This document shows positions 2,607 through 44,766 of a DNA stretch of 64,000 nucleotides, piece by piece (the stretch's first letter is position 1; each line of letters starts with the position of its first letter). The notes beneath the pieces are model-generated. The model saw only the letters and a list, made by a program, of their open reading frames with translations, had not been told where the DNA came from and made no database searches. The stretch spans positions 16,687-80,686 of the forward strand of contig CAWDQO010000003.1 of NCBI GenBank assembly GCA_963804525.1. Reading direction: 5' to 3'. The position numbers were made by a program, and so were the translations under genes. This stretch comes from an uncultured Thermoplasmata archaeon. Lineage in GTDB: Archaea; Thermoplasmatota; Thermoplasmata; Lutacidiplasmatales; UBA184.

Positions 2607-2958
2607 CGGTACGGCTCGAGGAAGGCGCGCGCGAGGGTTCGCACTCCTACATACCCGTTACCCCTTTCTCTCGTCAGGTGAGGTCGTGAAACGGCACACG
2701 CCCTGTTGGAGGACCCGGGGACTCGAGCGTGGCCGAACCTCCCCGGAGGTCGGGTTGATTCCGGCGTCGTTCGCGGTCGATTCCGAGGGGCGGATCCTCG
2801 CGCACGACTCGGCGCCGGGAGGAATTCTCACCTTCCCGGCGGATGGGAGCCCGTACGGATTCGAGATCTACTCCCGGCCGTACGAGGTCGTCCGCGTGCA
2901 GGGAATCTGTGCCGCGTCGGCCCTTCCGTGACGAGACGGGCCCTCGATTCCTCAAGGG

Positions 2959-2964
2959 TTATAA
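2959..2964 (+). promoter_or_regulatory. TATA-like box (TTATAA) about 30 nt upstream of the E1-alpha ATG
   Basis: This is the only AT-rich hexamer in a GC-rich spacer. Its distance to ATG 2993 fits an archaeal promoter for a leaderless or short-leader mRNA. Confidence 0.45.
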
Positions 2965-2992
2965 CGAATGGCCCGGTCGCGCGACCGGTCCG

Positions 2993-5049: not shown

Positions 5050-5059
5050 GGGGCGGTCG

Positions 5060-6388
5060 GTGGCGTACGAGTTCCGGCTCCCCGACATCGGGGAGGGGGT
5101 CGCGGAGGGCGAGGTCGTCAAGTGGTTCGTCCAGGAAGGTGCCACCGTCCAGGAGGACGCGCCGCTCGTCTCAGTGCTGACCGACAAGGCGAACGTCGAG
5201 ATCCCGTCGCCGAAGTCCGGAACGGTCGTCAAGATCCACGCCAAGGAAGGCGAGAAGGTCAAGGTGGGCGGCCTCCTCGTCACCATCGAAACCGGTGCTC
5301 CTTCCGCCCCAAGCCCCTCGAAGCCGAGGGACGCCGCGGCGGCACCTTCCTCGGAGAATCCCGCCCCGACCGCCGCTCCCGCAGCCCCCACCGCCCCGGG
5401 CCCTCCGACGGCCTCTTCGGCTTCGACGCGCGTCCTCGCCTCCCCGTTCGTTCGTCGATTGGCCGCCGAGCGCGGAATCGACCTCTCGAACATCCGCGGC
5501 ACTGGTCCGGGCGGCCGGATCCAAGAGTCCGACCTTGGGGAGAGCGCCTCGGCTCCCCGGGCTCCGGCCTCCCCACCCCCCTCGGCGAGTGAGGGACCAG
5601 TACCGACCCCGGCCTCCGTATCTCCGGATGCTCCGCATGCGCCGGCCGCGGCCTCCGCCCCGGCTCCCGCGTCCGGCTCGGGAGACTTCGAGCGGGTACC
5701 GATCCGCGGGGTCCGGCGCGTCATCTTCGAGCACATGGGCACGGCGACCCACACAGCGGCGTTGTACACCTACGTCGAGGAGGTCGACGCGACCGAGCTG
5801 GTCCGATGGCGGGAGCGGATGGCGAAACACGTGGAGAAGAATGGAGTGAAGCTCTCCTACCTCCCTCTCATCCTCAAGGCGGTCGTCGCCGGACTCCGCA
5901 CCCAGCCCTGGATGAACGCCCGTATGGACGACGAGCACCAGGAACTGCACGTGTACCCCGAAGCGCACATCGGGATCGCAACGGCCGCGCCGGAAGGGCT
6001 CATCGTCCCGGTGGTCCGCAACGTCGAGCGGAAGAGCGTCTCGCAGCTCGCGAAGGAGATCGGCGAGCTCGCCGAACGGGGCCGCGCCGGAAAGCTGACC
6101 CGGGCCGAGCTGACCGGGGGGACCTTCACGATCACCAGCCTCGGAGCCCTCGGGGGGGTCCTCGCCACACCGATCGTGAACTACCCCGAGGTCGCGATCC
6201 TCGGCGTGCACCGGATCGTGAAGCGACCGGTCTACCTCGCGGACGGGACGATTGCGCCGGCGCATCTGATGAACCTCTCGGTCTCGCTCGACCACCGGGT
6301 CCTCGACGGGATCGTGGGGGCGCAGTTCCTCCAGGTCGTCAAATCCCACCTCGAGGACCCTCACCAACTCTTCGCCGAGCTCGCGTAG
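5060..6388 (+). CDS. Dihydrolipoamide acyltransferase E2 (lipoyl domain, subunit-binding domain, catalytic domain)
   Basis: The lipoyl-lysine context is VLTDKANVEIPSP. The peripheral subunit-binding domain is ASPFVRRLAAERGIDLSNIRGTGPGGRI, and the catalytic motif is SLDHRVLDG. Confidence 0.93.
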   Translation: MAYEFRLPDIGEGVAEGEVVKWFVQEGATVQEDAPLVSVLTDKANVEIPSPKSGTVVKIHAKEGEKVKVGGLLVTIETGAPSAPSPSKPRDAAAAPSSENPAPTAAPAAPTAPGPPTASSASTRVLASPFVRRLAAERGIDLSNIRGTGPGGRIQESDLGESASAPRAPASPPPSASEGPVPTPASVSPDAPHAPAAASAPAPASGSGDFERVPIRGVRRVIFEHMGTATHTAALYTYVEEVDATELVRWRERMAKHVEKNGVKLSYLPLILKAVVAGLRTQPWMNARMDDEHQELHVYPEAHIGIATAAPEGLIVPVVRNVERKSVSQLAKEIGELAERGRAGKLTRAELTGGTFTITSLGALGGVLATPIVNYPEVAILGVHRIVKRPVYLADGTIAPAHLMNLSVSLDHRVLDGIVGAQFLQVVKSHLEDPHQLFAELA

Positions 6389-6643
6389 GCGAATCCCGCG
6401 GCGACTCGGCAGGACACCTGCGACGGGGTTGACTTGACCAAGGGGGGCCGCCCGCGGTTGGCGCCTATTCGGCGATGGTCGGAATCCCTCGCGCCGGGAA
6501 CGTCTCGGACCGCCCGACCTCTCGGGAGAGAGTTCAAGCCAAGCGCGGAGTTCCGCAGCAACGGAGGAATGCCCGGTGAGGCCGGGACGGAGTCGAAGCG
6601 CATCCAGGGCCTTGGTGGCAGACCTCTCCCTCGGGGTGGGCGG

Positions 6644-7690
6644 ATGACCGAGACGCCCGCCGTCGTCCCTCTGGAGTACTCGACAGACTCGCTCGCCGAG
6701 CTTCTCGGACCGGACTGGTCGCCGACCCTCGTCAATGCGTTCCGCTGGATGACCCTCGCTCGCGTCCTGGACGGACGGATGCTCGCCCTCCAACGCCAGG
6801 GGCGGATCGGCTTCTACGGCCCGGCGACGGGCCAGGAAGCGGTCAGCGTGGGAGCGGCCCTTTCGGTGGGGCCGACCGATTGGGTGTTCCCTGGCCTTCG
6901 GGAGCAGCTGATCGCCCTCGCCCGGGGACACTCGCTCACGACGTACCTCCACCACCTGTTCGCCGACGACCTTGACCCCGCGCGCGGACGCCAGATGCCG
7001 TGCCATCCGTCGGCCCGCGAGGTCCGGTACGTGTCGATGTCGTCGGTGATCGGAACGCAGATCACCCAGGCGGTCGGTCTCGCCTACGCGCTCAAGGTCC
7101 GGGGTGACCCGTCGGTGGCCCTCGCCTTCTTCGGGGACGGAGCGACGAGCGCGAACGACTTCCATGCGGGCGCGAACCTCGCGGCCGTCTGGCAGGCACC
7201 GGTCGTCCTGTGCTGCACCAACAATCAGTGGGCGATCTCGGTCCCGGTCGAGCGTCAGACCCATTCGGCAACGATCGCGGAGAAGTCGTCTGCCTATGGA
7301 TTGCCGGGGGAGCGGGTCGATGGGACCGACGTCGTGGCGGTGACGAGCCGGCTGAGGGCGGCCGTCGCCCGCGCCCGCTCGGGCGGAGGCGCGACCCTCC
7401 TCGAGTTCGTCGTGTTCCGGATGACCCCGCACTCGAGCTCCGACGACCCCAGCCGGTACCAGGACCCGGAGTTCCTCCTTCGGGCGCGCCAGAAGGACCC
7501 GTACCTTCGCCTCGAGCTCCTCCTCCGGTCCCTCGACCTCGCCGACGACGGCAAGATCGCCGGATGGCGCGAGGAATCCGACGCCTCGGTCCGGGCCGCG
7601 ATCGAGGTCGCCGAGCGGACGCCCCCGCCCGCCCCGGAGTCGCTCGGGACCGACGTGTTCGCGCCGACCGGCCCCCCCGCACCGTCTTAG
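6644..7690 (+). CDS. Second E1 alpha-subunit paralogue (no adjacent beta subunit)
   Basis: The start is the ATG at codon 71 of ORF 6434..7690. It keeps LQRQGRIGFYGP and the TPP motif GDGATSANDFHAGANLAAVWQAPVVLCCTNNQWAIS, plus FRMTPHSSSDDP. Confidence 0.88.
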   Translation: MTETPAVVPLEYSTDSLAELLGPDWSPTLVNAFRWMTLARVLDGRMLALQRQGRIGFYGPATGQEAVSVGAALSVGPTDWVFPGLREQLIALARGHSLTTYLHHLFADDLDPARGRQMPCHPSAREVRYVSMSSVIGTQITQAVGLAYALKVRGDPSVALAFFGDGATSANDFHAGANLAAVWQAPVVLCCTNNQWAISVPVERQTHSATIAEKSSAYGLPGERVDGTDVVAVTSRLRAAVARARSGGGATLLEFVVFRMTPHSSSDDPSRYQDPEFLLRARQKDPYLRLELLLRSLDLADDGKIAGWREESDASVRAAIEVAERTPPPAPESLGTDVFAPTGPPAPS

Positions 7691-7715
7691 GCCGGGGCGG
7701 TTCCCCCACCGCACC

Positions 7716-9161
7716 ATGGCGGGAACGTACGCGCGACAGACCGACCTCCTCGTCATCGGCGGCGGACCGGGGGGATACGTCGCCGCGATCCGGGCCGGTC
7801 AGCTCGGGGTCAAGACCCTCCTGATCGAGAAGCGGGAGCTCGGCGGGGAGTGCCTGAACCGCGGGTGCATCCCGTCGAAGGCCCTCATCCACGCCGCCGG
7901 GCTTTACCACGCCCTCCGAACCGAAGGGCCGGGGATCGGCGTCGAGGCCGACGCCGTCCGGTTCGACCTCGCGAAAGCGATGCAGTGGAAGGAATCCGTG
8001 GTCGCGAAGGAGCGGAGCGGGGTCGCGATGCTCCTCAAGTCGGCGGGGGTCTCCGTCCTGTTCGGCGAGGCCCGATTCACGGGCCCGCGGTCGGCCGAGC
8101 TCGCCGCCGCCGACGGCGGACGGGAGCGGATCGACTTCGCGAAGGCGATCGTTGCAACGGGCGCGGTCCCGACGATCCTCCCCGGGTTCGAGCCCGATGG
8201 CGCCCGCGTGTCGACGCCGGAGCAGCTCCTCGGCTGGACGTCCCTCCCGAAGAGCCTCCTCGTCCTCGGAGGGGGGGTCAGCGGCTGCGAGCTCGGCGAA
8301 TTCCTCGCCGAGGTCGGAGTAGCCGTCACGATCGTCGAATGGATGCCCCAGATCCTTCCCGGCCTCGACCCCGACCTCGCGCAGGAACTCGCGCGGTCGC
8401 TCGCTCAGCTGGGTGTTGCGCTCCGAGTCGGCGCGAAAGCCACGAAGCTGGAGCGGACCGCCGACGGGGTGCAGCTCACCATCGAGTCGGGGGGGACGCA
8501 GGAGGTCCTCTCCGCCGAGCGTCTCTTCCTCACCATCGGGAAGCGCCCGGCGACCAACGACCTCGGGCTCGACGAGGCCGGGGTCCAACGGGACGCCAAG
8601 TCCGGGTTCCTCACCGTCAACGACCGCCAGCAGACGAACGTCCCGACGATCTTCGCCGTGGGGGACGTCGCGCGCCCGCCGATGCTCGCCCACAAGGCCT
8701 ACCGGGAGGGCGTGGTCGCGGCCGAGGTCGCCGCCGGGCGACCGACCCGCTACCAGTTCCAGGCGATCCCGTCGGTCGTGTTCACTTCGCCCGAGCTCGC
8801 GAGTGTCGGGTGGACAACCGCCGAGGCGACGGCCGCCGGACACCACCCCCGGGACGTCCGGTTCCCGTTCGCCGCGCTCGGACGGGCGCACGCCGCCCAC
8901 GCGACGACCGGATGGCTGAAGCTCGTCGGCGACGACACGACCGGGCTCGTCCTCGGGGTGCAGGCCGTGGGGGAGTCGGTCGGCGAGTTCATCGCCGAGG
9001 CGGCCCTCGCGATCGAGATGGGAGCGACGGTCCGCGACCTCGCCATGACGATCCATCCCCATCCGACGTTCTCCGAGACCCTCCAGGAAGCCGCCCTCCT
9101 GTGGCTCGGCGAGCCGTTCCACGTGGCCCGGAGGACCTCGGGTGCCGCTCGCCCTTCGTGA
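7716..9161 (+). CDS. lpdA: Dihydrolipoamide dehydrogenase E3
   Basis: The FAD fold motif is VIGGGPGGYVAA and the redox disulfide is GGECLNRGCIPSK. The C-terminal HPHPTFSE is the His-Glu dyad region. Confidence 0.95.
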   Translation: MAGTYARQTDLLVIGGGPGGYVAAIRAGQLGVKTLLIEKRELGGECLNRGCIPSKALIHAAGLYHALRTEGPGIGVEADAVRFDLAKAMQWKESVVAKERSGVAMLLKSAGVSVLFGEARFTGPRSAELAAADGGRERIDFAKAIVATGAVPTILPGFEPDGARVSTPEQLLGWTSLPKSLLVLGGGVSGCELGEFLAEVGVAVTIVEWMPQILPGLDPDLAQELARSLAQLGVALRVGAKATKLERTADGVQLTIESGGTQEVLSAERLFLTIGKRPATNDLGLDEAGVQRDAKSGFLTVNDRQQTNVPTIFAVGDVARPPMLAHKAYREGVVAAEVAAGRPTRYQFQAIPSVVFTSPELASVGWTTAEATAAGHHPRDVRFPFAALGRAHAAHATTGWLKLVGDDTTGLVLGVQAVGESVGEFIAEAALAIEMGATVRDLAMTIHPHPTFSETLQEAALLWLGEPFHVARRTSGAARPS

Positions 9162-15087: not shown

Positions 15088-15231
15088 TCAGTCCCGTCGG
15101 GCGTTGCGTTCGTACGACGCGTCGCTCGTCCGCTTGAGGCGGGCGCCGTCGCGGTCGCAGATCGGCTTGTTCGTCGGCGAAACATCCATGACGTACCCCC
15201 CGCCGCACTTCGGACACTCGTAATAGGCCAT
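15088..15231 (-). CDS. 47-aa Cys-knuckle mini-protein (below the ORF-track size cutoff)
   Basis: My translation is MAYYECPKCGGGYVMDVSPTNKPICDRDGARLKRTSDASYERNARRD. GAGG lies 9 nt upstream of the ATG. The ORF sits 27 nt upstream of, and co-directional with, the DUF998 gene. Confidence 0.5.
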   Translation of the reverse strand: MAYYECPKCGGGYVMDVSPTNKPICDRDGARLKRTSDASYERNARRD

Positions 15232-15268: not shown

Positions 15269-15287
15269 GCCCCTAGCTCGGCCGGTC

Positions 15288-16226
15288 GTGCCCTCGAGCT
15301 CGAAGCGGGTGGGTGGGCTCACCGTTCGTCGGGGCCCCCGAGCGGCAGCGCCCATTCCTCCCCCCGCACCTCCCGCGCGGTTTCGGCACCTCGACCGTTA
15401 CCGGGTCGATCGGGAGTGGAACCGGTACGAAGGAACGGCGCAACGGGAACTGTTCCGGACCCTGCGGGAGCGATTTCTCGCCCGGCACGCCGCGGACCAC
15501 GGGTGGGTGGTCGACATCGGGTCCGGGTCGGGGCGATTCACGCCGCGGCTCGGGGGCCCGGGCTGCCGAACGGTCGCGGTAGACCTCTCGGCCGAGATGC
15601 TCCGAGCCGTCCCGGACCATTGGCCCGCGGACCTCGACCGCCCCGAGCGAGTCCGCGCGGACGGCCGCAGGCCCCCGGGACGGTCCGGCTCCACGGCGGC
15701 CGTCGCGATCCTCGGGAATGCGGTGGGGTTCGCCGGGGCGGACGCTCTCGAACTGCTCGGCCAGTGCGCCGACCTCGTCGCTGTGGGCGGACGAATTCTC
15801 ATCGAGGCGGCCCCCGGCCCCGGAACGACGGCCCGATACCTCCATCGGCTCCCGCCGGGGGCCGTCCGCCGGCTGTTGCACGCGCCGCTCGGCGCCGTGG
15901 CGCCGCGGGTCCTCCGGGAGGGGTTCGTCACCCGGGAGTCGGAGGACCGGACCCGTCACGGGTTTCGACCGCTCTCCTTCCGCGCGATCTCTGCCCGCCT
16001 CGGGACGGTCGGGTTCGACGTCGCCGAGGCGACGGCGGTCGCCCCCGCGCTCGGCGCCGAACCGGACCGGCTGGAGGAGATCCGGGCCGACCCGGTCGCG
16101 TGGGGCCGACTCCTCGACCTCGAGGAGCGGCTCGGCGCATCGCCGCTGGTCCGGGACCGGGCGTCCGCCCTTCTGGTGGCCGCGGTCCGACCGGGCCCGG
16201 CCGCCGAAAAGCCAGCAATTAAGTAA
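15288..16226 (+). CDS. Class I SAM-dependent methyltransferase
   Basis: Motif I is VVDIGSGSGRF, the post-I acidic motif is AVDLS, and GGRILIE lies downstream. Confidence 0.8.
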   Translation: MPSSSKRVGGLTVRRGPRAAAPIPPPAPPARFRHLDRYRVDREWNRYEGTAQRELFRTLRERFLARHAADHGWVVDIGSGSGRFTPRLGGPGCRTVAVDLSAEMLRAVPDHWPADLDRPERVRADGRRPPGRSGSTAAVAILGNAVGFAGADALELLGQCADLVAVGGRILIEAAPGPGTTARYLHRLPPGAVRRLLHAPLGAVAPRVLREGFVTRESEDRTRHGFRPLSFRAISARLGTVGFDVAEATAVAPALGAEPDRLEEIRADPVAWGRLLDLEERLGASPLVRDRASALLVAAVRPGPAAEKPAIK

Positions 16227-16262
16227 CGGACGACGCCCTGTTTCTATCCACAGGGACGTCGC

Positions 16263-18902
16263 GTGGCGGACACAGCGAGTTCGACCCGCCGGGTAGTTGC
16301 GAGCCCCGTTCGGGCCGCGAATGCAAGCCCAGCCGCGCGGCCGTCCCGGTCGACGACGGTCCCGACCCCCCAGGACCTCGACCTCGTCAAGGACGACGCG
16401 CTCCTCCAGCTCCGGATCGGCCGCTCCGCCCACTACTACGCCGTGTTCGTCGCCATCGCGCTCCTCCTCGACGGATTCCTCGTCCTCTTCCTCCGCCCCA
16501 CGCTGATGGGCGTCGTCTCCTCGCGGTTCTGGAACCTTTCGTTCCTCCTCTTCCCGCTGTTCGCCGGTCTGTTCCTCGCGGTCTTCGGCCTCCGGGTGAA
16601 GTGGGAGGTCTACCAGCTCTGGCCGTGGGAACCCCACTTTTCGGTGACGGTGGCGGCCGTCGTCCTCGACCTCGCCCTCGTGGCGGTGTTCGTCATGGCG
16701 GTGGCGCAGGTCGGCCCCGGCGCGAACTGGAACCTCCTGCCGTGGTTCTTCCCCCTCGCGCTGCTGGGCATCTCGGCGCCGCTCTTCGGACTGATCTTCA
16801 CCTGGCCGTCGTGGTCGACGTGGAAGGTGATCTCGATCGGCTCGGCGGCGATCCCGGTCGGCCTCGCCTTCGCCACGTTCCTCCCGAGCGCCGACACGGC
16901 GAGCGGGATCGCGCTCACGCTCTCCTCGAGCGCGGTGCTGTTCCTCGTCGCCGGATCGTTCGTCCACATCATCTCGTCCGGGACCCGGACCCACGAGCGG
17001 GAGATCATCACCTCCGGACAGAGCCGGCTCTTCCAGATCGCCGACGAGCTCCGGGAGCGGGAGGAGGCCCACCACTTCCGGGAGAGCACCCTCCTCGAGC
17101 GGGAGGCGAACGTGGAGAACGCCGAACTGAGCCTCCAGCGAAAGCTCGACTCCCAGGAGGAGGCCCGCCGGCACATCTCCGCCCTCGAGGCCGACGTCCA
17201 GGCGCGGAGCCAGTCGGTCGTCCAGCAGCAGCGCGACCTCGCGATGAAGTCGGCGGAGACCAACGCGCTCAGCAAGACCCTCGAGGACCGGGCGACGAGC
17301 CTCTCCCTGAGGGAGGCCGACCTGGCGGCCCGCCTCCCGAAGCTCGCCGAGCGGGAACAGCAGATCTCCGCACGGGAGGGGGACGCCGCTCGCCATGATG
17401 CGGAGCTCGCCCAGCGGGAGGCCGAGACGAAGCGGCGCACCGATGCGCTCCCGGAGTCGGAGCGACTGCTCGAGGCGCGCCGCCAGGAGCTCGAGCTGAA
17501 GACCGGGGAGATCCTCCGCCAGGAGGGGGAGCTCCGGGGCCGGACCGCCGGGTTTGCGACGGACGACGCCAAGGCGTCCGACCTCGCCGCCCGGGAGGCC
17601 CAGCTCGCCCAGCTGAAGCTCGTCCTCGACGACCAGAACGCCTCGCTCGGCCGGAAAGCGAAGGAGGCCCGGGAGTCGCTCGCCCAGGCGCAGGCGCTCG
17701 CCCAGGAGAACGCGCGGCGCACGGAGGAGGTCGCGACTCGGGAAAGGAGCCTCACGGAGAAGGAGCGGGACGCCACGGAGAAGACCGAGCTCGCGGCGCA
17801 ACGGGCGGCCCAATACGAGGAGATTCTCCACACGTACGAGGAGCGGATCCGCGCCCTCGAGACTCGCGACGCCGAGCTCAAGAATCGCGGCGTCGACCTC
17901 AACCGGGTCAGCCAGACCCTGACCGAGCGCGACCGGACCGCGCGGACCGAGACCGAGCGGCTTCAGGCCCAGCGGGTCGAGCTCGAGCAGCGGGAGAAGG
18001 CGCTGCTCGTCCGCTCGAAGACCCTCGACGCTCGAGAGTCGGAGGTCAGCCTCAAGGGGCAGGCACTCGACCGTCGCGCCGTTCCGATGGCGGCGCCCAG
18101 GACGGGACCGGCGGCCGCCCCGGTCTTGGACGCCAACCTCCTCGCGCCCGCGAGCCGACCGAAGTTCGCGGACCGGATCCCGACCGGGACCCCGCGGCTC
18201 GACGATCTCTTGCTCGGGGGAGTCCCGCCCAAGGCCCACCTCGCGCTGATCGGGGACGCGTTCGTCGGCAAGGAGGTCGCGATCTACGCGTTCGTGGCGG
18301 AGGGGCTCCGGCGCGGCGAGCCGGTCGTCGTCGTCACCGCGTCCCGCTCCCCCGAGGAGCTCGGCCAGAAGATCGGCCTCGTCCTCCCGCAGCTGCACGA
18401 GTACGAGCAGCTCGGCAAGATCCACTGGGTCGACGCCTCGACCCCGACCGACGCCCCGACCGCTCAGCCGTCCACGTCGACCCGCTCGGTGACGCGGGGC
18501 CCGACCGACCACGCCGGGATCCTGAGCGCCCTCGTCCAGCGGTCGAACGCGATCACCACGGGCGGGGCGAAGTCGTTCCGGGTCGCGTACCTCGGCCTCT
18601 CGGCGTCGCTCTCCGCGGCCGACGAGCGGGTCCGGATGAACTTCCTCCAGAACCTCGTGGGCATCCTCAAGCCCCGCAACGCGGTCGCGATGTACTCCCT
18701 CGAATCCGGCTCGCTGCCGGAGAGCCAGGTCGAGACGATCCTCAGCCGGATGGACGGGGCGATCCGGTTCAAGCAGGAGCGGGACAAGACGTTCCTTTCC
18801 GTCCTCGGCCTCGGAGAAGTCGAGACCCACGACTGGGTCGAGTACCGGGCGACGCCGCGGGGCCTCGTGGTCGGCTCGTTCGCGCTCGAGCGGATTCGGT
18901 AA
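16263..18902 (+). CDS. Polytopic membrane domain, long coiled coil and C-terminal KaiC/RecA-like domain with degenerate Walker A
   Basis: Residues about 55-245 contain about six hydrophobic helices. Residues about 250-640 are heptad-like and E/R/A/L-rich. The C-terminus reads RIPTGTPRLDDLLLGGVPPKAHLALIGDAFVGKEV...VVVVT, like KaiC-type ATPases, but has GK-E in place of GK-[ST]. Confidence 0.85.
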   Translation: MADTASSTRRVVASPVRAANASPAARPSRSTTVPTPQDLDLVKDDALLQLRIGRSAHYYAVFVAIALLLDGFLVLFLRPTLMGVVSSRFWNLSFLLFPLFAGLFLAVFGLRVKWEVYQLWPWEPHFSVTVAAVVLDLALVAVFVMAVAQVGPGANWNLLPWFFPLALLGISAPLFGLIFTWPSWSTWKVISIGSAAIPVGLAFATFLPSADTASGIALTLSSSAVLFLVAGSFVHIISSGTRTHEREIITSGQSRLFQIADELREREEAHHFRESTLLEREANVENAELSLQRKLDSQEEARRHISALEADVQARSQSVVQQQRDLAMKSAETNALSKTLEDRATSLSLREADLAARLPKLAEREQQISAREGDAARHDAELAQREAETKRRTDALPESERLLEARRQELELKTGEILRQEGELRGRTAGFATDDAKASDLAAREAQLAQLKLVLDDQNASLGRKAKEARESLAQAQALAQENARRTEEVATRERSLTEKERDATEKTELAAQRAAQYEEILHTYEERIRALETRDAELKNRGVDLNRVSQTLTERDRTARTETERLQAQRVELEQREKALLVRSKTLDARESEVSLKGQALDRRAVPMAAPRTGPAAAPVLDANLLAPASRPKFADRIPTGTPRLDDLLLGGVPPKAHLALIGDAFVGKEVAIYAFVAEGLRRGEPVVVVTASRSPEELGQKIGLVLPQLHEYEQLGKIHWVDASTPTDAPTAQPSTSTRSVTRGPTDHAGILSALVQRSNAITTGGAKSFRVAYLGLSASLSAADERVRMNFLQNLVGILKPRNAVAMYSLESGSLPESQVETILSRMDGAIRFKQERDKTFLSVLGLGEVETHDWVEYRATPRGLVVGSFALERIR

Positions 18903-19021
18903 CCCGGGGACCCGCATCCCCCCCGGCGTAGGGTTCGAGGTCGACAGTTATTCCGAGAACGGGAATCGACGGCATTTCTCCGGTCAAGGTTTAAGAGCCC
19001 TGCCGTCGGGAGGAGCTTCTC

Positions 19022-21132
19022 GTGAGGCCCCGCGCCCGCCGAACGGCCCCCCGACCCGAACGCTTCCCTCTTCACCGGGTCGGGCGGGGCGTCTGGAGCG
19101 GGCTTGCCGTCGCAGCCGTTCTCGCGATGATCCTCGTTCTCCCTCTTCCGGCGTCCGCCCGTCTGGGTCCTCCGCCCGCAGCCGCAAAGGTCGTCCCCAC
19201 GACGAACGCCCTCGTCCGATCGATCGGGTTCCCTGCTCCCAGCGTCGTCCAGTACTTGCACGCGGTTTCCCCGGCCCACCCGCTCACCTGGCCGACGCCC
19301 GCGGGCCCGCGAGCCGCCGCATTGCCGAAGGCGACCGGGGTCAACGGAAGCTCCTGCGACCCGTACTGGCCGGCTTCCATGCCGATCGGGCTCGCGGCCA
19401 TCAACGGATCGGTCACCTGGACGGGAAACACGACGGGGGCGACCCCGCTCAATCTCTCCTGGTCGATCGTGATCGGCGGCGGAGGGATTCCGCCGTACCA
19501 GACGTACGTGGAAATCGAGCCGTACGTCGGCGGCAACTTGACGTGGAATTCCACGAACCTGACCGGGAACGTCTCCCTGACGGTCCCGGGAATGTACGTC
19601 GGCTTCGTGGAGGTCGTCGACTCGACCTGCGACGCCATCGGCGAGTCGTTGCTCGGGCCGGTCACGGTCTATGACCCGTCGGGCCTCGACCCGGTGCAGA
19701 TCTCCGCGTCGACCGCGGGCGGCACCGTCCCCCTCGCGGTCGCTTTTTCGCTGAACCTTTCGAGAGTACCGACGAACGCGAGCATGCTCTGGGAGACCCC
19801 CTTCTCGTACGATTCCGACGGATGGACGATCAACACGACGTACTACCAGCCCGGAAACGACACCGCGACGGGCTGCCTGGTCAACCCGACCACGGGGGCC
19901 TGGCTCGCCTGTGGGAATTCCAGCGCCGTGGCGGTGACCGGGTCGGACCTGACCACCGCGGTCTCGGTTGGGAACGGGACCCTTCCCGTGAACATCACCT
20001 TCTGGGTCAACGTCACGAACGGCTCCGCCCTCCCGGCGGGCTGGACCGTGAACCTGGATACCGACAACGGCACCCTCCTCGAGAACGCCTCGCAGAACGC
20101 CTCCACGAGCCTGACGGGGAGCTTTGGCTGCGGTCCCGAATTCCTCACCAATCCGGCGAACGCCGCCGGGATGTGCCCCTGGGTCGCGAGCTACTTCCTC
20201 GAGGCCGACCCGGGGGAACTCCGGTCTATGTGACCGGGGGAACCATCTGGGCGAACCTGACGGAAAACGGCTCGCCCGTCCTCTGGTACCCGACGGTGAC
20301 GTACACGGAGTCGCCGACGAACGGGTCCGCCCCCCTGAACGTCACCGTGAACGTGACCGCCTCGAACGGTCTCGCTCCGTACCAATACTGGTGGGCCGTC
20401 GTCGGCGCCTCGTCGGCGTTGCCGAACCAGACGTACTTCCCGACCGCCACCGGGAACGGTTCGGGATGGAACGGCTCCCTTCTTGCGCTGTCGTTCTCGT
20501 TCCCGCACCTCGGGATCTACAGGATCACCGTGACCGTCCGAGACTCGGACCTGAACTACGTCTTCCTGTATCCGCCGGTCGTCCCGGTCGGCGTCGCCCT
20601 TGCTCCCCGGCCCCTGCACGTCTCGACCTCCGAGGGAGCCGCCGCGGCGGCCGGCCCGAACGCCACCCGGGTCGCCTTCGTCGCGAACGTCCGCGGCGGG
20701 GAGGGCCCGTACGCGCTCCAGTGGACGTTCGGCGACGGGACCTACGGCAGTTCCCTCCCTGGGGTCCCGGTGACCCATACGTACGCGTCGGCGGGGACGT
20801 TCGTCCCCACCGTGACGGTGACGGATGAGACGGGGGCGACCCAGACGTCGACCCTCCCCGCCGTCGTGATTCTCCCGACACCCTCGACCGGGAACCAATC
20901 GTCTCCAGGCACGACCGGCCCGTCGCACGGGGCGTCCGGGAACGGCGGAGGACCCTCCGGGTGGCTCTCCCTCGGCACCGACGGATGGGTCGGCGGATTC
21001 CTCGTACTCGGGGCGCTCGCGCTCGTTGTCGTGGGGGCCGTCCAGGTCGAGCGGCAGAGGTCGGCCGAGCAGTTGGTGCGCCGGCTCGAGAGCGACACCG
21101 CTTCGGGGAAGCTGCCGCCGATGGGCGGCTGA
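19022..21132 (+). CDS. Sequon-rich surface glycoprotein with PKD-like domains and a C-terminal TM anchor; frame broken at the G-run 20212-20216
   Basis: The N-terminal signal/anchor is GLAVAAVLAMILVLPLPASA. PKD-type motifs are PYQYWW and PYALQWTFGDGTYG...THTY. The C-terminal TM is WVGGFLVLGALALVVVGAV. ORFs 19022..20233 and 19822..21132 join if one G is added. Confidence 0.8.
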
Positions 21133-21197
21133 GGCGGAACCCTCGCCGGCGCGTACCGAGATATCTTTCCGCGACCTCGGGGCGGTGGAACCGTCGG

Positions 21198-22460
21198 ATG
21201 CGCTTCCCGTCCCTGGCCGCGGTCGGCGTCCTCACCCTGGTGCCCGCGATGGGCGCGCTCTCTCCCGTGGTCGGGATCGGCCGTGCCTCGAACGACCGGC
21301 CCGGGACCGTCCCGCACGGCCTGACCCTGACCGCCACGCCCAGCACGGGCGTGGCCCCGCTCCCGGTCGACTTCGACCTCTCGATCCCCCCGAACACGAC
21401 CCTCCCGGAGGTCTCCTGGTCGTTCGGCGACGGCAGCTTCCTTAACGGGAGCGGGACCCCCGTTCTCGCTCCAGTCCACGACTACGAGGCGAGCGGGGTG
21501 TTCGTGGCGACGGCGTCGGCGACCTGGTCGAGCGGGACCGTGAACGCGACGATCCAGATCCAAGTGGCGGCGGCGAACCTCTCGGTCGGGATCCGCGCGA
21601 ACGTCACGAACGGCACCGCTCCGCTCACCGTGGCCTTCACGGGGAGCTCGGCCGGGGGGACCGGGACGTTCGTTTCGTTCGTCTGGGCGTTCGGGGACGG
21701 CGACGCCGGGACCGGCCGATCGATCCGGTACACGTTTACCGGCCCCGGGAATTTTCCGGTGACGCTCGTCGTGACGGACAGCCACGGCGACACCGGCAAG
21801 GCGACGGAATGGGTGAACGTCTCCGCCCGCCCGGATGGAAATTCGACCGGTCCCGGGTCCGGCGCCGCGGACCCCCCTACCTCTGGCCCGAACCCGTGGG
21901 ACCGCTTGCTGGTCGGTGGCTCGATCTGGCCCTTCCTGGGGGTCGTCGCGATCGCCGGCGCGGCGTTGGCCTTCGTGGGGTCCCGGTTCCTCAGCCGACG
22001 GGAAAGCGCTCGTCCGGAGGCCGCTCTCGCAACCAGCCGTTCCCCCATGGTCTCAGTCGGCCCGGGGTCACCTGACTCTCCGTCGCCAACGACCGGTCTG
22101 GAGCCACCCGCCGCACTCGCTTCTCCGCCCACGATTCCGGTCGGGTCGCGAAGGCTCCCCACGCGGGTCACCCAAGAGCGGCAGATTGCGAACCGGCTCA
22201 TCCGGCACCTGGCCGAGCTCCCCCGGATGGCGCCGGGCGACGTCCCGGGACAGGGTCGCACCCAGGCGGGCCTCGTGGTCGCCCTCGGGGCCGGTCAGAG
22301 CGCGGTCGGCCGGGTCCTGGGGCAGTTGGAGCGGGCGGGGGTCGTCACGGTCGTGACCACCCACGTCGTCGGCTCCCCGCGCCGAGTGAAAGTGTACCAG
22401 CTGACCCCCCGGGGGGAGCGGCTAGGACACGCGCTGCGCGAATCCGGCCCTCCGCCTTAG
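21198..22460 (+). CDS. Membrane-tethered regulator: signal peptide, two PKD-like domains, a TM helix and a cytoplasmic winged-helix domain
   Basis: The start is the ATG at codon 80 of ORF 20961..22460. PKD motifs are VSWSFGDGSF and FVWAFGDGDAG..RYTF. The TM helix is IWPFLGVVAIAGAALAFVG. The C-terminus RLIRHLAEL...RTQAGLVVALGAGQSAVGRVLGQLERAGVV...RRVKVYQLTPRGERLG is MarR/PadR-like wHTH. Confidence 0.8.
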   Translation: MRFPSLAAVGVLTLVPAMGALSPVVGIGRASNDRPGTVPHGLTLTATPSTGVAPLPVDFDLSIPPNTTLPEVSWSFGDGSFLNGSGTPVLAPVHDYEASGVFVATASATWSSGTVNATIQIQVAAANLSVGIRANVTNGTAPLTVAFTGSSAGGTGTFVSFVWAFGDGDAGTGRSIRYTFTGPGNFPVTLVVTDSHGDTGKATEWVNVSARPDGNSTGPGSGAADPPTSGPNPWDRLLVGGSIWPFLGVVAIAGAALAFVGSRFLSRRESARPEAALATSRSPMVSVGPGSPDSPSPTTGLEPPAALASPPTIPVGSRRLPTRVTQERQIANRLIRHLAELPRMAPGDVPGQGRTQAGLVVALGAGQSAVGRVLGQLERAGVVTVVTTHVVGSPRRVKVYQLTPRGERLGHALRESGPPP

Positions 22461-24000: not shown

Positions 24001-24129
24001 TAGATGCGGCCGACCTTTATCCCGCTCCCGACCGTCGGACGCCACATGGAGACCTCGGACGGACCGATCCGGAATGCCGAGGCGGTCTTCGTCTCCCCCG
24101 CGTCGAGCTCCGTTCGAGGGTCGCGGGGC

Positions 24130-27100
24130 ATGCAATTGAGCTCCAGTCCCGCGCCGGCCCCATCGGCCCGTCGAGTCTCCCCTCCGAATCGTTGCCAGGA
24201 TCGACGGGGCCAACGGGGGCCCCGCACGAGTCGGAAGCTCCTCGCCGCGGCGGGAATCCTCGCCCTCGCCGTACTCGCGAGTTCCTTCGCGGGAGTGGGT
24301 GGGACCGTCCGCGGGGACCCGCCCTCCGGCCCTTCCGCGATCTCGAGTCGCTCCCTCTCGACGCCTGCCGGGACCGCCAGCGAGCTTCGGGCGTTGGCGG
24401 CGACCGCGTGTCCCGGGGCGTACACCCCCCAAAACGTCACGATCGTCAACGGCACCACGAATCGGGTGACGGCGAGCATCCCCGTCGGCACGGAGCCAAG
24501 TGCCCTCGTGACGGACACGGCCACGGGGGACCTATTCGTGACGAACTGGGGCTCATCGAACGTGAGCGTGCTGAACGGGTCGACGAACGACCTCGTGGCG
24601 ACCATCCCCGTGGGAAGCTCCCCTCGCGGGATCGCCTACGATCGCGCGAACGGCGACCTCTACGTCGCGAATTACCTCGTGGCCCCGGCGGCCGTGACCG
24701 TCCTCAGCGGCTCGAACCTCACCCGAATCGCGACGATCTCGATCCCGCTCAGCAACCTGCCGAGCACGTTCGCGGTGGACACGGCGACCGACACCATCTA
24801 CGTCGGGAACGGGAACTCGAACTACGTCAACGTGATCAACGGGACGACGAACCAACTCGCGGGGAACATCGCCGTCCCCTCGGACCCGTACGCGATGGCG
24901 ATCGACCCGGCGACGGGGGAACTCTACGCCCTCGACGAGCAGTCGGCGAACGTGAGCGTCATCAACACGACGTCCAACGTCGTCGTCGCGAACATCTCCG
25001 TCGGGATGTACCCCGTGGCCCTCGCGTTCGGCCCGATGGACCAGGACGCCTACATCGTCGACGCCGGCATCGCCAGCGGAAACGTCAGCGTGATCGACGT
25101 GGCGAACGACTCGGTGGTCGCCACGATTCCCGCGGGGCTCTCCCCGAACGGGATCGCGTTCGATGCTTCGAACCGCGAGGTCTACGTCTCGAACCAGTCG
25201 GCGAGGGCCCCGTACGGGGGCAACGTCGCCATTGTCAACACCACGACCAATACGGTCGTCGCGAACGTCAGCGTGGGGGCCGAGGACCATTCCCCGGTCG
25301 CGGATGCGGCGAACGGAGACGTCTACGTCGCGGACTTCGGTCCGGGGGATGTGGACGTGATCAACGGCTCCACGAACCGGCTGCTCCCCCCGGTCGCGAG
25401 TTGGAACGGGTCCGACGGGGCGAGCGACGTGCTCGTGGATTCCTCCAACGGGAACATCTACGTCCTGAACCAGGCCTTCTGGAGCGGCGTCACGACCTAC
25501 GAGCTCAGCTTCTCCGAGACGGGTCTTCCGGCGGGGACGAACTGGACGGTCGGACTCACCGCCTCGTGGGGGTCGACGGGATTCCCCACCTACGAATCGT
25601 CGACGCTCGGCTGCATCTGGTTCGAGGGGTACAACGCCACGTACGCGTTCACGGCGCGCCTCACGTCTCCCGCCGTCAATTGGACCTACGTGGCCTCCCC
25701 CGCGTCCGGATCCTTCAACGTCAGCGGGGGCCCCGTGAACGAATCGATCGTGTTCACGTTCGAGCCGATCTACCCGGTCGAGTTCAACGAAACCGGGTTG
25801 CCGAACGGGAGTGCCTGGTCTCTGACGTTCGAGGGGTACCCGGAGTCGTCTTCCACCGACACGATCGCTGTGTGGGAACCGAACGGCTCCTACTGGTACA
25901 ACGGTGTCGAGGGGCCCTCGGAGTACGCGGCAGCTCCCAATTCGGGTCGGCTCCTGGTGAACGGGTCGGCGCGGAACATCCCGATCGCATTTTCCACAAA
26001 GACGTTCGACGTCAACTTCACCGAATTCGGGCTTCCCGTCGGCACGACGTGGTCGGTCGACCTCGGTGGTGACACTCAGTCCAGCGCGTCGCGGGGTATC
26101 CCGTTCGAGGAGCCGTCCGGGAATTACTCGTACACCGTCGGCGCGGTTCCGGGCTACATCGCGACTCCGACCGCCGGCACCGTGACGGTGGTCGGCTGGA
26201 ACCAGTCGATCCTTCTGAAGTTCGGACCGATCCTCTACCCGGCCAACTTCACGGTCTCGGGGCTGCCGAGCGGGACGTCCTGGACGGTCGACCTCAACGG
26301 GACCGAGCTTTCCTCGACCGGAACCGTCATCTCGTTCCAGGAGCCGGCCGGGATCTATCCGTACTCGATCCCCCAGCTCGCGGGGTACTACTCGGCGCTC
26401 CAAGGGACGGTCACCGTCGGTGCCCCCGGGGTCACGCAATCGGTGGTGTTCGCCCCGATCGTCTTTTCCCTGACGTTCCGGGAGGCCGGATTGCCGAACG
26501 GGACCGGTTGGGGGGTGGCGATCGGGTCCTCCATCGAAACGACGCTGGGGGCGACGGTCACCTTCCCGGACGAGACCAACGGGACGTACGGGTATGTCGT
26601 GCTCTCCATCTCCGGGTACACGACGACCTATTCCGGGATCGCCGTCGTGAACGGGACCGACCGAACGGTCGAGGTACTGTTCGTTCCTCAAACGTTCCCG
26701 GTCGTCATCGTCGAGTTCGGCCTCGCCAACGGCACGAACTGGAGCGTGACGATCACGAACGCCTCTGCCGGGTTCAACGAGACGCACTGGTCGACGACCG
26801 AGGCGATCGTCTTCGACCTCCCCAATGGGACCTACGCGGTCTCGGTCGCCCTGCCGACGGGGTACACGTTCGCGCTCACCGCCACCCAGCTCACCGTGGC
26901 GGGTCGGGCGACGTCCGGACCGACTCTGAACGCGCAGTCGACGGCTCCCCCATCCTCCCGGGGCGTCCCGCCGGAGGGCTCGGGAACCCGGCCTGCGGGG
27001 TCCCCGGATCTGCCCGGTCGAACTCCTGGGGCTCGCGTTGGCGATCGCTGCCGTCCTCGTGGGGGCTTGGGTCCTCCGTCGCAGGCCCCCCCGGCCGGCT

Positions 27101-27169
27101 CGACCGCCCTTGTCGTTCCCAGATGCACCGCCGAAGGTGGTCCCGGAGAAACCATCGTTTCGGAGGTAG
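24130..27169 (+). CDS. Giant surface protein: YVTN beta-propeller repeats, six GLPxGTxW modules and a C-terminal TM anchor; frame broken about 26940-27020
   Basis: The start is the ATG at codon 43 of ORF 24004..27576. There are about ten repeats of the type NxVSVINxxTNxVVATIxVGxxPxGIAxDxxNGxLYVAN. The TM anchor ELLGLALAIAAVLVGAWVLRRR and a TAG at 27167-27169 lie in the +1 frame. The track frame instead runs on as R/G-rich text across the next gene. Confidence 0.8.
25498..26930 (+). repeat. Six tandem modules of about 77-91 aa, each starting [YF]xxxFxExGLPxGTxWSV
   Basis: Module starts, read from the sequence, are at about 25498, 25771, 26005, 26235, 26464 and 26695, a period of about 230-273 nt. 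Each contains a later PNGTY/GNYSY...GY segment. Confidence 0.8.
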
Positions 27170-27255
27170 GAGGGACGCAACGCCCCGGGTCGGGCGGACG
27201 CGCAGGACGGTCCTCGGGGGCCGCCCGTCCAGGACAGCCCCCTCGGGCGGCCCGG

Positions 27256-27534
27256 TCAGGCGTCATCCGTGATGGCGCGGGGCCGGGGGATGACCTTCGG
27301 CTGGTCGGCATCGGTGGGCATTCCCGACTTCCCCTCGACGATGTCGCAGTCCTGCCAGTTCACGCCGACCGTGACCTTCGGGAAGGCGACCTTGATCGTG
27401 TAGGTGGCGAGCTTCCCGACGACCAGCCCGTTCGCCCCCTCGACGAGGTTCGGGTTCATGATGGAGAGGTCCCGGGTGAGGACGACGCGGGTCTTGCCGA
27501 AGACGATCCGCTGGAGCTCCTCCCGGTTCTTCAT
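27256..27534 (-). CDS. Hypothetical 92-aa protein
   Basis: The composition is protein-like (MKNREELQRIVFGKTRVVLTRDLSIMNPNLVEG...). An AT-rich TTTAAG element lies about 38 nt upstream. I recognise no family. Confidence 0.55.
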   Translation of the reverse strand: MKNREELQRIVFGKTRVVLTRDLSIMNPNLVEGANGLVVGKLATYTIKVAFPKVTVGVNWQDCDIVEGKSGMPTDADQPKVIPRPRAITDDA

Positions 27535-27649
27535 CGGGGGTCCCTGCGCGCGCGCGTAGCGGCCTCCCGTTCTTAAACTCGCGGCGTCGGGAGCGGCCGA
27601 GAAGGGTATTTAGAGGGAACCGCGGTGCCTCCGACGCGCCGGGGCCCGA

Positions 27650-30648: not shown

Positions 30649-30955
30649 CGTTCCCGCCTCTTGGGCGCCGGTCCCAGTTTTTGGCGGTATAAAGTCCTCG
30701 TGGGGGGGCCGCGGACGCGTGCCGCAATTCTCGCATCGATTGAGACGGCTCGGGCCGCGATCGGACGGCGGCCTGGACCGCACCTCCCCACCGTCGAGAT
30801 CGGACCGGGCCGTCGCGGAGCAGCCCTCCGGCGGTCCAACGGACGACTCCGGTCTTTCGACACGGGGAGGTCTGGCGCCCCCCATGGCGGGGAGTATCTC
30901 GCGGGTAACTCAGGGCGTTAAGCGGGGGGACGGAGTGCGGTCCCGGGAGAGAGCC

Positions 30956-44740: not shown

Positions 44741-44766
44741 GTCGGGGGCCCCTACTAGGACCAGCC

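Follow-up and report, generated by a model that had tools for sequence, protein, structure and literature searches.

A conserved membrane protein of acid-soil Thermoplasmata archaea combines a probably inactive KaiC-like domain with a probable helical hairpin

A 64,000-nt stretch of DNA (here called the window) from an uncultured Thermoplasmata archaeon encodes a protein built, from N- to C-terminus, of a six-helix membrane domain, a heptad-repeat rod, a linker rich in Pro and Ala and a KaiC-like domain, and the original prediction of an unusual architecture was thereby borne out. The protein represents a conserved, uncharacterised family of acid-soil Thermoplasmata archaea, and its KaiC-like domain carries conserved replacements at all three catalytic determinants of the fold. 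Overall, the evidence tips slightly towards the gene encoding a membrane-embedded pseudo-ATPase scaffold or sensor with a hairpin stalk and a membrane-proximal head.

RESULTS

A core gene of a Thermoplasmata clade

The open reading frame was confirmed as predicted. Its composition is that of a coding sequence (GC3 of 0.94 and GC2 of 0.47 in a genome of about 70% GC), more than 170 full-length homologues of the 879-aa protein were found, and the C-terminal peptide that had been quoted in support of a KaiC-like domain, RIPTGTPRLDDLLLGGVPPKAHLALIGDAFVGKEVAIYAF, corresponds to residues 638-677. One 239-nt metatranscriptome contig (n=1) is identical to window positions 16501-16739, which lie within the gene. 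An exact search of the assembly index for the window protein gave no match. A reference-genome scan located the gene in 131 species-level genomes, nearly all of which are labelled Thermoplasmata (Lutacidiplasmatales where named), and its genomic surroundings are housekeeping; the gene thus has core-gene status in the clade. Short relatives of 536-671 aa were also found, in which the membrane and KaiC-like domains are kept and the rod and the entire P-loop are gone. These short forms indicated that the two domains work together without nucleotide chemistry or a long spacer. The features of the locus are collected in Table 1.

Table 1. Features of the KaiC-like gene and its upstream region (window positions, with residue numbers of the 879-aa protein)
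Feature	Residues	Position	Strand	Remarks
TATA-box-like element, archaeal, TATATAAA		15262..15269	+	About 20 nt upstream of methyltransferase start; read from sequence
Class I SAM-dependent methyltransferase, 312 aa		15288..16226	+	Pfam Methyltransf_25/11; upstream, 36 nt from KaiC-like gene
Whole gene, membrane/coiled-coil/inactivated-KaiC protein, 879 aa		16263..18902	+	GTG start, TAA stop
Arg-rich variable N-terminal tail	1-35	16263..16367	+	Low conservation; predicted cytoplasmic (positive-inside reading)
Six-TM domain specific to the family	36-239	16368..16979	+	Hydropathy and AF2
Pre-TM1 motif DDALLQLRIGRSAHYY		16392..16439	+	Conserved, cytoplasmic face; D45 A46 L47 Q49 L50 invariant
TM2-TM3 cytoplasmic loop motif KWExYQLWPWExHF		16599..16640	+	Conserved; K113 W114 P121 W122 E123 H125 F126 invariant
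Juxtamembrane motif GSF(L/V)H(L/I)ISSGTRxHEREIITSGQSR		16953..17027	+	Link between TM6 and rod
Rod arm 1	255-425	17025..17537	+	About 24 heptads, consensus L-x-x-R-E-A-x; conserved kinks P359, P397
Mid-rod tip loop	426-437	17538..17573	+	Gly/Pro/Ser-rich; only rod site varying in length
Rod arm 2	438-603	17574..18071	+	About 24 heptads, arm-1 consensus; probably packs antiparallel on arm 1, register i+j about 865
Pro/Ala-rich flexible linker	604-636	18072..18170	+	Length varies; insertions at 618 and 630; pLDDT <50
Inactivated KaiC/RecA-like domain	637-879	18171..18899	+	Pfam, profile versus PDB, AF2, Foldseek
Degenerate Walker A, G-D-A-F-V-G-K-E	664-671	18252..18275	+	Glu at Mg-coordinating Ser/Thr position
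T-A-S-R-S, aligned to KaiC T-F-E-E-S catalytic glutamates	692-696	18336..18350	+	HMMER alignments to 8zn5
Walker-B-equivalent strand FRVAYL, then Gly778 for Asp		18576..18602	+	AF2 strand 772-777
Extreme C-terminus GSFxLERIR-COOH, invariant		18873..18899	+	G871 S872 F873 L875 R877 I878 R879 invariant

A membrane domain nearly exclusive to the family

Six membrane helices had been predicted, and both hydropathy and an AF2 model of six long helices (pLDDT 84, pTM 0.81) agreed, with TM helices at about residues 58-78, 91-111, 127-149, 159-180, 190-208 and 214-236. TM1 contains a conserved acidic residue, D70. With the N-terminus inside, the conserved motifs of the domain would face the cytoplasm; in the juxtamembrane motif, G231, H235, S239, G240, I249 and Q253 are invariant. 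The domain is nearly exclusive, and essentially unique, to this protein family, its profile giving 74 matches among 1.84 billion representatives. A related membrane module occurs in P0166, in four fusions with an OppC-type permease. Foldseek searches returned nothing significant from the PDB (best hit cytochrome b561, E=0.037, TM about 0.33) or from a viral structure library (best E=0.1), and the likeness to cytochrome b561 was rejected as generic six-helix similarity.

The rod is probably an antiparallel hairpin

The original prediction described about 400 uninterrupted residues of coiled coil. We found that the helical region covers about 350 residues (255-603) and is broken at P359, at P397 and at the loop 426-437. 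It comprises about 48 LxxREAx heptads in total, and its midpoint falls exactly at the variable Gly/Pro-rich loop. Only one residue per heptad, the Leu, is bulky and hydrophobic, and along each arm the heptad repeat is strictly kept, with no shift of phase. Rod length is nearly constant across relatives; the tip loop, 14-38 aa long, is the sole indel hotspot, carries an insertion in 125 of 149 relatives and is rich in Gly (12.9% versus 3.0% in the rod) and Pro (7.9% versus 0.5%).

Covariation was analysed by gap-free MI-APC, from about 103 effective sequences on which all hairpin statistics are based. An anti-diagonal peak appeared at i+j = 864-871, the top of 734 bands, with a z score of about 6 (6.2); the next-highest band reached 5.2, at the position of a gap artefact (offset 55). 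MI-APC replaced mean-field DCA, whose output for the rod was discarded because paired 7-aa deletions (473/528) in 1-2 sequences gave rise to a gap-gap coupling that swamped it. In the distant members of the family, an unpaired 7-residue insertion was observed at 479, without obvious compensation on arm 1.

The mirror symmetry of conservation along the rod was best at i+j 868 and 865. For the LxxREAx repeat, only one antiparallel register class, 4 mod 7, pairs Leu with Leu and Arg with Glu, and this class includes 865; the mirror correlation of hydrophobicity likewise limits the register to i+j = 4 mod 7 and picks no single one, since the heptad phase is coherent along the whole rod. A hairpin is favoured by the indels, the covariation, the symmetry of conservation and the pattern of charges alike, and the KaiC-like head would consequently adjoin the membrane domain. 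On these sequence-derived patterns, the rod probably doubles back as an antiparallel hairpin, about 25 nm long, thereby bringing the KaiC-like domain back to the membrane.

The earlier view of the rod as a 400-residue extended tether is probably wrong. In its explicit form, the rods of several identical molecules would join in a parallel coiled coil about 50 nm long, which would hold a KaiC-like ring far from the membrane and act as a ruler or tether for some cytoplasmic structure, e.g., the nucleoid. We consider this arrangement unlikely, although strict periodicity, in phase over each arm, would suit it, conserved rod length is expected of a ruler, and KaiC-like domains commonly oligomerise (bioRxiv 10.1101/2021.03.19.436134). 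In-register parallel pairing would stack the L+3 position, which is 60-65% basic, on itself, and each heptad offers a single bulky hydrophobic residue. Moreover, the length-variable Pro/Gly-rich loop lies exactly at the rod midpoint, antiparallel covariation and conservation symmetry are both centred on it, and the short relatives manage without any rod.

The C-terminal domain has a KaiC-like fold

The assignment of the C-terminal domain as KaiC-like was upheld by sequence and structure. Pfam PF06745 matched residues 639-840 above its threshold (E=1.3e-11, 44.8 bits versus a cutoff of 26.6), and the family profile searched against the PDB retrieved KaiC at 7.6e-19 and PH0284 at 4.9e-15. An AF2 model of the domain (pLDDT 79, pTM 0.79) gave Foldseek matches to PH0284 (2dr3; 3e-12, TM 0.66-0.71), FlaH (4yds; 8e-11) and KaiC CI/CII. 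A circadian KaiC identity was rejected, the protein having a single domain and scoring 22.8 bits on NF006799 versus a cutoff of 408.

Distant members scored above the cutoff on DUF7504 (PF24336; 34-45 bits versus 27) over the C-terminal domain, two of them also exceeded the Pfam cutoff of DUF7090 (PF23365) across the same domain, and precomputed DUF7504 matches exist for several closer family members. The window protein itself matched neither DUF7504 nor DUF7090 at E up to 1, and we found no literature on these two families of unknown function. PADLOC anti-phage defence models did not match the KaiC-like protein. Most homologues have a listed match to PF27881 (CRWN_N, a coiled-coil family of plants), which was set aside as noise, as were the RNase_Y_N matches, which are coiled-coil noise of the same kind.

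All three catalytic determinants are replaced

The signatures of an active ATPase, namely GxxxxGK[ST], hhhhD at the end of beta4 and the catalytic Glu after beta2 (TFEE), are absent from the domain. A Walker A motif without its Ser/Thr had been predicted, and among 120 relatives G664, F667 and E671 are each conserved in 120/120, while G669 and K670 are each present in 117. GKE also occurs in 12 distant, compositionally different members, and a canonical GK[ST] was found in none of the 120 relatives or the 12 distant members. Since Glu671 is invariant across the family, GK-E is not a sequence error. The position of the catalytic Glu pair is occupied by Ser694-Arg695, with Arg695 in 112 of the 120 relatives and R, K or H in distant members. 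Finally, the segment FRVAYLGLSA, which had been named as the candidate when no clear Walker B could be recognised, is the Walker-B-equivalent strand, with Gly778 replacing the Asp; G778 is found in 117/120 relatives, the residue is never Asp, and distant members have S, T or P.

Conserved replacement at all three determinants indicated that the domain is a selected pseudo-ATPase, and from these motifs we infer that it no longer hydrolyses ATP. The loss of the Walker A, catalytic Glu and Walker B residues fits the predicted catalytically dead, membrane-attached KaiC-like module, with Glu671 and Arg695 probably filling the former Mg/gamma-phosphate site. The ArlH mutants K33A and D122N lose ATP binding (bioRxiv 10.1101/2021.03.19.436134), and the natural Asp-to-Gly change is therefore expected to disable the domain.

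The glycines and the lysine of the P-loop are retained, and the domain may therefore still bind a nucleotide or some other ligand with a phosphate. We regard it as unlikely, nonetheless, that the protein is a ligand sensor in which a pocket formed by the P-loop Lys, Glu671 and Arg695 binds Mg-free nucleotide or another small phosphate/anionic ligand and its occupancy regulates the membrane domain, e.g., a channel- or transporter-like activity, in a manner resembling MEDS-type sensor domains. MEDS is an inactive RecA/KaiC-fold sensor domain. The retention of G664, G669 and K670 under selection, the acidic D70 inside TM1 and the permease fusions of the related module in P0166 are consistent with such a sensor, as is a weak match to MEDS PF14417 (E=4e-4), which is confined to residues 674-727 and, at 20.6 bits, is below the Pfam cutoff of 29.8. 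Against it, short relatives that lack the P-loop still keep the remainder of the domain, and the membrane domain is structurally unlike any channel or transporter in the two libraries searched with Foldseek.

It is very unlikely that the domain is still an enzyme, that is, an ATPase or autokinase of a non-canonical kind, with Mg coordinated directly by Glu671 and with other residues in place of the Walker B Asp and the catalytic Glu. GxxxxGK is conserved, and euryarchaeal ArlH autophosphorylates with Gln in place of the catalytic Glu (bioRxiv 10.1101/2021.03.19.436134); however, three catalytic determinants have been lost together, the Arg at the catalytic-base position is a charge reversal, ArlH D122N fails to bind ATP (same reference), and the sister short forms lack the whole P-loop.

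An upstream methyltransferase is linked to the gene in one clade

Of 82 informative loci, 80 have the methyltransferase gene next to the KaiC-like gene and in the same orientation. It is absent beside the distant KaiC-like homologues, the linkage being specific to one clade. Homologues of the methyltransferase are all unannotated and confined to that clade, with no characterised relative found, and in NCBIfam it has only generic SAM-binding-region matches, far below cutoffs. The methyltransferase is thus a conserved neighbour within the clade and at most a candidate partner of the KaiC-like protein. As a mechanistic clue the enzyme led nowhere, and CheR/MCP-like methylation was accordingly kept only as a low-probability reading. 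The element TATATAAA could be a candidate promoter for a methyltransferase/KaiC-like transcript.

DISCUSSION

In the scaffold-or-sensor reading that we favour, the rod would fold back at the Gly/Pro-rich loop near residue 432 to give a stalk of two antiparallel helices, about 170 residues (about 25 nm) long, which would be held by one Leu per heptad and by interhelical Arg-Glu pairs on its flanks. This would place the KaiC-like head beside the membrane domain, at its conserved cytoplasmic face, with the stalk pointing into the cytoplasm. Such a protein would work through binding, not catalysis: head and membrane domain would oligomerise or dock partners as a single unit, and the fixed-length stalk would serve as a spacer or as a recruitment or signalling arm. 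Covariation is blind to the difference between intra- and intermolecular antiparallel contacts, and rods of two molecules paired head-to-tail along the inner membrane surface would leave the same i+j signature, but we judge this dimer highly improbable, for it needs a 50-nm strut lying flat beneath the membrane, and the rod midpoint is a length-variable Pro/Gly-rich loop, not a continuous helix.

The best matches of the protein in sequence and structure are single-domain archaeal KaiC-like proteins. PH0284 (2dr3), PH0186 (2zts) and SSO2452 (2w0m) share with it the RecA/KaiC fold and the N-terminal TGxxxLDxxLGGG. In the alignments they carry a canonical GKT, whereas our protein has GKE, Ser-Arg and Gly at the motif positions. 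It also carries a membrane domain and a rod, unlike these three, which we take to be soluble stand-alone proteins. A degenerate KaiC-superfamily domain within a multidomain archaeal protein, as found here, corresponds to the iKaiC concept in PMC5847659, where iKaiC denotes inactivated KaiC-like domains of archaeal signalling proteins (Makarova, Galperin and Koonin 2017, cited in PMC5847659), and both have a degenerate-motif domain as a non-enzymatic module. In the passages of PMC5847659 that deal with iKaiC, the fusions described are to REC, PAS and HalOD1 in haloarchaea and methanogens, and the description there includes neither the 6-TM and hairpin-rod layout nor the invariant GKE/Arg pair.

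The iKaiC class is a better precedent than FlaH/ArlH, which had been proposed as an example of a degenerate KaiC-like scaffold. In ArlH both Walker motifs, A and B, are canonical, and it is an ATP-binding, autophosphorylating protein that docks on ArlI (bioRxiv 10.1101/2021.03.19.436134); our protein is far more degenerate. The likeness lies in a single KaiC-like domain acting as a non-hydrolysing partner at the membrane, and FlaH is the next-best structural match after PH0284. Identity with ArlH/FlaH was rejected, as the protein scored 12.4 bits on NF004723 versus a cutoff of 194, neither the scanned ORFs of the window nor related loci included archaellum genes (arlI/arlJ), and the host order Lutacidiplasmatales is without archaellum genes (PMC9287336).

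MCP cytoplasmic domains and SMC/Rad50 arms resemble the protein in its inferred topology only, i.e., a long, fixed-length antiparallel helical hairpin that is rooted at the membrane or in an NTPase-fold head and varies in length just at the tip. There is no sequence relationship, and neither Pfam nor NCBIfam gave a match to MCPsignal or to SMC hinge/head domains. The rod has one hydrophobic residue per heptad and an Arg/Glu ladder, not an a/d core, and the head is a single dead RecA-like domain, whereas that of SMC/Rad50 is a split ABC ATPase. By analogy, the protein might belong to a previously unrecognised class of archaeal membrane receptor or mechanical device, in which a membrane-proximal unit of six TM helices and a dead KaiC head bears a 25-nm hairpin of fixed length as an arm for signalling or recruitment, in the manner of MCP or SMC, and which the methyltransferase might tune covalently in Lutacidiplasmatales; we hold this to be improbable.

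KaiC-like proteins have been proposed as the main signalling hubs of archaea, and to our knowledge almost none besides ArlH has a known mechanism. The family described here offers a clean natural case of a KaiC fold that has stayed under strong selection after all three catalytic determinants were lost, the former active site probably now containing a charge-swapped Glu/Arg pair, and it couples this dead fold to its own membrane domain and to an unusually regular coiled coil. The scaffold-or-sensor reading predicts that the protein would have no ATPase activity, a 25-nm hairpin and a head at the membrane. The soil lineage concerned is widespread and uncultured, and with 131 of its species-level genomes carrying the gene, the protein probably reflects a basic piece of the cell biology of these archaea.

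RESULTS

The KaiC-like open reading frame (ORF) has codon-position GC values (GC3 0.94, GC2 0.47) typical of real genes in this genome; the GC content of the window is about 70%. A search of 5.8 billion proteins yielded more than 170 full-length relatives (850 to 935 aa, 44 to 89% identity). Every relative with a name belongs to uncultured Thermoplasmata; the annotations go no further than hypothetical, "ATPase domain-containing" or "KaiC/GvpD/RAD55 family" protein. When one genome per species was scanned, 131 carried a relative, including Candidatus Lutacidiplasma silvani (membrane domain 88% identical), a Ca. Lutacidiplasmatales MAG and MAG UBA184. Lutacidiplasmatales have about 69% GC and lack archaellum genes (PMC9287336). 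A single 239-nt rhizosphere metatranscriptome contig is identical to part of the gene, which is weak evidence of expression.

The original prediction had assigned the C-terminus to the KaiC-like proteins, and both sequence and fold bear this out. Pfam KaiC (PF06745) matched residues 639 to 840 at 44.8 bits (cutoff, 26.6), and a profile built from 24 family members retrieved PDB KaiC (E=7.6e-19) and PH0284 (4.9e-15). The AF2 model of residues 622 to 879 (pLDDT 79, pTM 0.79) gave PH0284 as the best Foldseek match (3e-12, TM 0.66 to 0.71), followed by FlaH (4yds) and KaiC CI/CII. The domain is thus a practically certain member of the KaiC/RecA superfamily. All specific NCBIfam models (archaeal KaiC types, circadian KaiC and FlaH) scored far under their cutoffs, so that identity with circadian KaiC or with ArlH/FlaH was rejected. 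The final residues, GSFxLERIR-COOH, do not vary within the family and could serve as a docking tail.

The active site has lost its catalytic motifs. A Glu had been noticed after the P-loop GK, and GK[ST] in homologues would have implied a sequence error; this is excluded, since Walker A in 120 relatives reads G664-x-x-F667-x-G669-K670-E671, with Gly664, Phe667 and Glu671 in 120/120 and Gly669 and Lys670 each in 117/120. In HMMER alignments, the catalytic glutamates of KaiC (T-F-E-E) stand opposite T-A-S694-R695, and Arg695 is present in 112/120. The absence of a Walker B motif at FRVAYLGLSA was likewise confirmed: the Walker B strand, at 772 to 777 in AF2 (FRVAYL), is directly followed by Gly778 in 117/120 relatives and never by Asp. 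The pattern extends to 12 far more remote full-length members, several of which are Lys-rich and stem from low-GC organisms: they show GKE, a basic residue at 695 and no Asp in Walker B. Every catalytic-motif test was failed by the domain. Judged by this conservation, the GKE, Arg695 and Gly778 substitutions are fixed features of an active site remodelled under selection. Because the ArlH mutants K33A and D122N lose ATP binding (bioRxiv 10.1101/2021.03.19.436134), we infer that the domain would carry out no Mg-ATP chemistry, and its catalytic inactivity is likely. At the positions of the Mg ligand and the catalytic base stand Glu671 and Arg695, a charge-swapped pair that probably fills the former site.

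The six-helix membrane domain originally proposed agrees with hydropathy (six TM segments within residues 58 to 236) and with AF2 (six long helices, pLDDT 84, pTM 0.81). Its outer loops are variable, with indels, and four motifs are strongly conserved: DALLQLRIGRSAHYY, KWExYQLWPWExHF, TWxxW and GSFLHLISSGTRxHERE. All four are predicted to lie on the cytoplasmic face, given a cytoplasmic Arg-rich N-terminus and a cytoplasmic KaiC-like domain. The domain is in effect family-specific; Pfam holds no model for it, its profile matched only 74 of 1.84 billion representatives, and Foldseek against the PDB and a viral library gave no significant match. Asp70, an acidic residue in mid-TM1, is conserved in 90% or more of close relatives but not in several of the distant members; it may serve to sense ions or protons.

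A heptad tether of some 400 uninterrupted residues had been described. The helical heptad rod stands (residues 255 to 603, Pro and Gly scarce), but it is broken at its midpoint by a loop of 14 to 38 residues. Each arm is a strict, in-phase L-x-x-R-E-A-x heptad (150 full-length members), with one bulky hydrophobic position (75 to 90%), Arg/Lys at +3 (60 to 65% basic, 2 to 3% acidic) and Glu/Asp at +4. This repeat differs from a canonical a/d core; pairing two rods in parallel and in register would place like charges on each other. Five features argue instead for an antiparallel fold centered near residue 432. The rod hardly varies in length (350 to 365 residues in 105/131 members), the sole indel hotspot is the exact midpoint (insertion at 430 to 434 in 125/149 sequences), and the rare indels elsewhere are mostly exactly one heptad. 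The midpoint loop is enriched in Gly (12.9% versus 3.0% in the rod) and Pro (7.9% versus 0.5%). MI-APC covariation averaged along anti-diagonals peaks where the paired residue numbers sum to i+j = 864 to 871 (z ~6), exceeding all other bands among 463 antiparallel and 271 parallel-offset ones; the peak survives when gaps are not counted as a state, and in each separation bin between tip and base the signal is positive. In the mirror correlation of per-column conservation, i+j = 868 and 865 are the top two of 187 registers, and Leu-on-Leu with Arg-on-Glu occurs only where i+j = 4 mod 7, a class to which 865 belongs. Since the statistical margin is moderate (z 6.2, with 5.2 for the runner-up band, which is an artefact of gaps) and Neff amounts to just ~103, we favor the hairpin with some reserve. 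Such a stalk would measure ~170 residues (~25 nm), and the Pro/Ala linker would bring the KaiC-like head back near the membrane, beside the conserved cytoplasmic face. Paired 7-residue deletions at alignment positions 473 to 479 and 528 to 534, 55 residues apart in the same arm, occur in one or two sequences (e.g., the relative P0150) and may reflect either a heptad slip in the alignment or a genuine local feature.

Searching 1.84 billion representatives with the membrane-domain profile also retrieved relatives of other architectures. Four proteins of 536 to 671 aa (P0171, P0175, P0185 and P0187) form a short-form sister clade, in which only a Pro/Ser-rich linker, and no long rod, separates the membrane domain from the KaiC-like domain; their P-loops are wholly degenerate (e.g., AYDGVGPD and DDSGLAST). 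The membrane-proximal head proposed for the long forms agrees with this arrangement. In P0166 (1,107 aa), a module related to TM3-TM5 occurs four times in tandem and is joined to an OppC/BPD_transp_1 ABC permease.

In 80 of the 82 loci that extend far enough to judge, the gene directly upstream, in the same orientation, encodes a class I SAM methyltransferase of 280 to 330 aa; in the window, 36 nt separate the two genes, and a TATATAAA element precedes the methyltransferase start by ~20 nt. A DUF998 membrane protein was found in 73/84 loci, and NUDIX and GHMP kinase genes in only ~22. Because the neighbors of two distant homologues of the KaiC-like protein are unrelated and NCBIfam models and a homologue search gave no characterized methyltransferase relative, this linkage is a clade-specific hint rather than evidence of mechanism. 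In the window, we saw no KaiC paralogue or pilus, archaellum or division genes, and PADLOC defense-system models gave no match. The remainder is housekeeping (an aminotransferase, a carbamoyltransferase, deoxyhypusine synthase, the 2-oxoacid dehydrogenase complex and PKD surface proteins); features of the window are listed below.

Features of the window
Feature	Position	Strand	Remarks
2-Oxoacid dehydrogenase complex operon	2843-9161	+	E1 alpha-type genes, E2 lipoyl acyltransferase, E3 dihydrolipoamide dehydrogenase; consistent with aerobic organoheterotrophy proposed for Lutacidiplasmatales
47-aa ORF MAYYECPKCGGGYVMDVSPTNKPICDRDG...	15088-15231	-	Between DUF998 and methyltransferase; zinc-ribbon-like look, weak ADK_lid match (E=7e-4); called at same spot in three relatives' loci (L001, L002, L004)
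1,214-aa ORF	15273-18917	-	Antisense to whole KaiC-like gene; best read as GC-rich shadow ORF (70% GC genome; missing from GC3-filtered gene set)
Methyltransferase	15288-16226	+	312 aa
KaiC-like gene	16263-18902	+	879 aa
Asp70 codon	16470-16472		
Metatranscriptome match	16501-16739		
GSFxLERIR tail	18873-18899	+	
Secreted/surface protein cluster	19022-21132, 35524-36339, 24004-27576	+	Rich in N-glycosylation sequons (PKD domains); 1,190-aa NHL-repeat protein
PKD-domain surface protein	20961-22460	+	TM helix, then C-terminal segment with weak, sub-cutoff winged-helix matches (MarR_2, PadR, HTH_27); possibly a membrane-tethered transcription factor
ComA (phosphosulfolactate synthase) homologue	29650-30885	-	N-terminal extension of ~100 aa
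Large AAA_16 (STAND-type) protein	44719-47190	+	TPR repeats, weak N-terminal HTH; candidate MalT/LuxR-like regulator
Second large AAA_16 (STAND-type) protein	49389-51659	+	

DISCUSSION

The dead, membrane-tethered KaiC-like module first envisaged holds for the KaiC fold, the replaced catalytic motifs and the six TM segments, but not for the uninterrupted rod or the FlaH/ArlH precedent, and probably not for the extended tether. [quoted passage not shown] By the description in PMC5847659, the right category is iKaiC, a class of inactivated KaiC domains in archaeal signaling proteins; in the accessible literature, we found no iKaiC description with a six-TM domain, a hairpin rod of one-Leu/Arg-Glu heptads or an invariant GKE/Arg pair. 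The likeness to MCP or SMC/Rad50 hairpins would be one of topology, with no sequence relationship.

The existence of short forms shows that the membrane and KaiC-like domains are a unit and can work without nucleotide chemistry or a long spacer. We put forward a scaffold or signaling role tentatively, at somewhat less than an even chance, over ligand sensing or a purely structural function. Overall, the best account, toward which we lean slightly, is that the KaiC-like protein is a pseudo-ATPase embedded in the membrane, has a stalk folded back on itself and acts as a scaffold or sensor.
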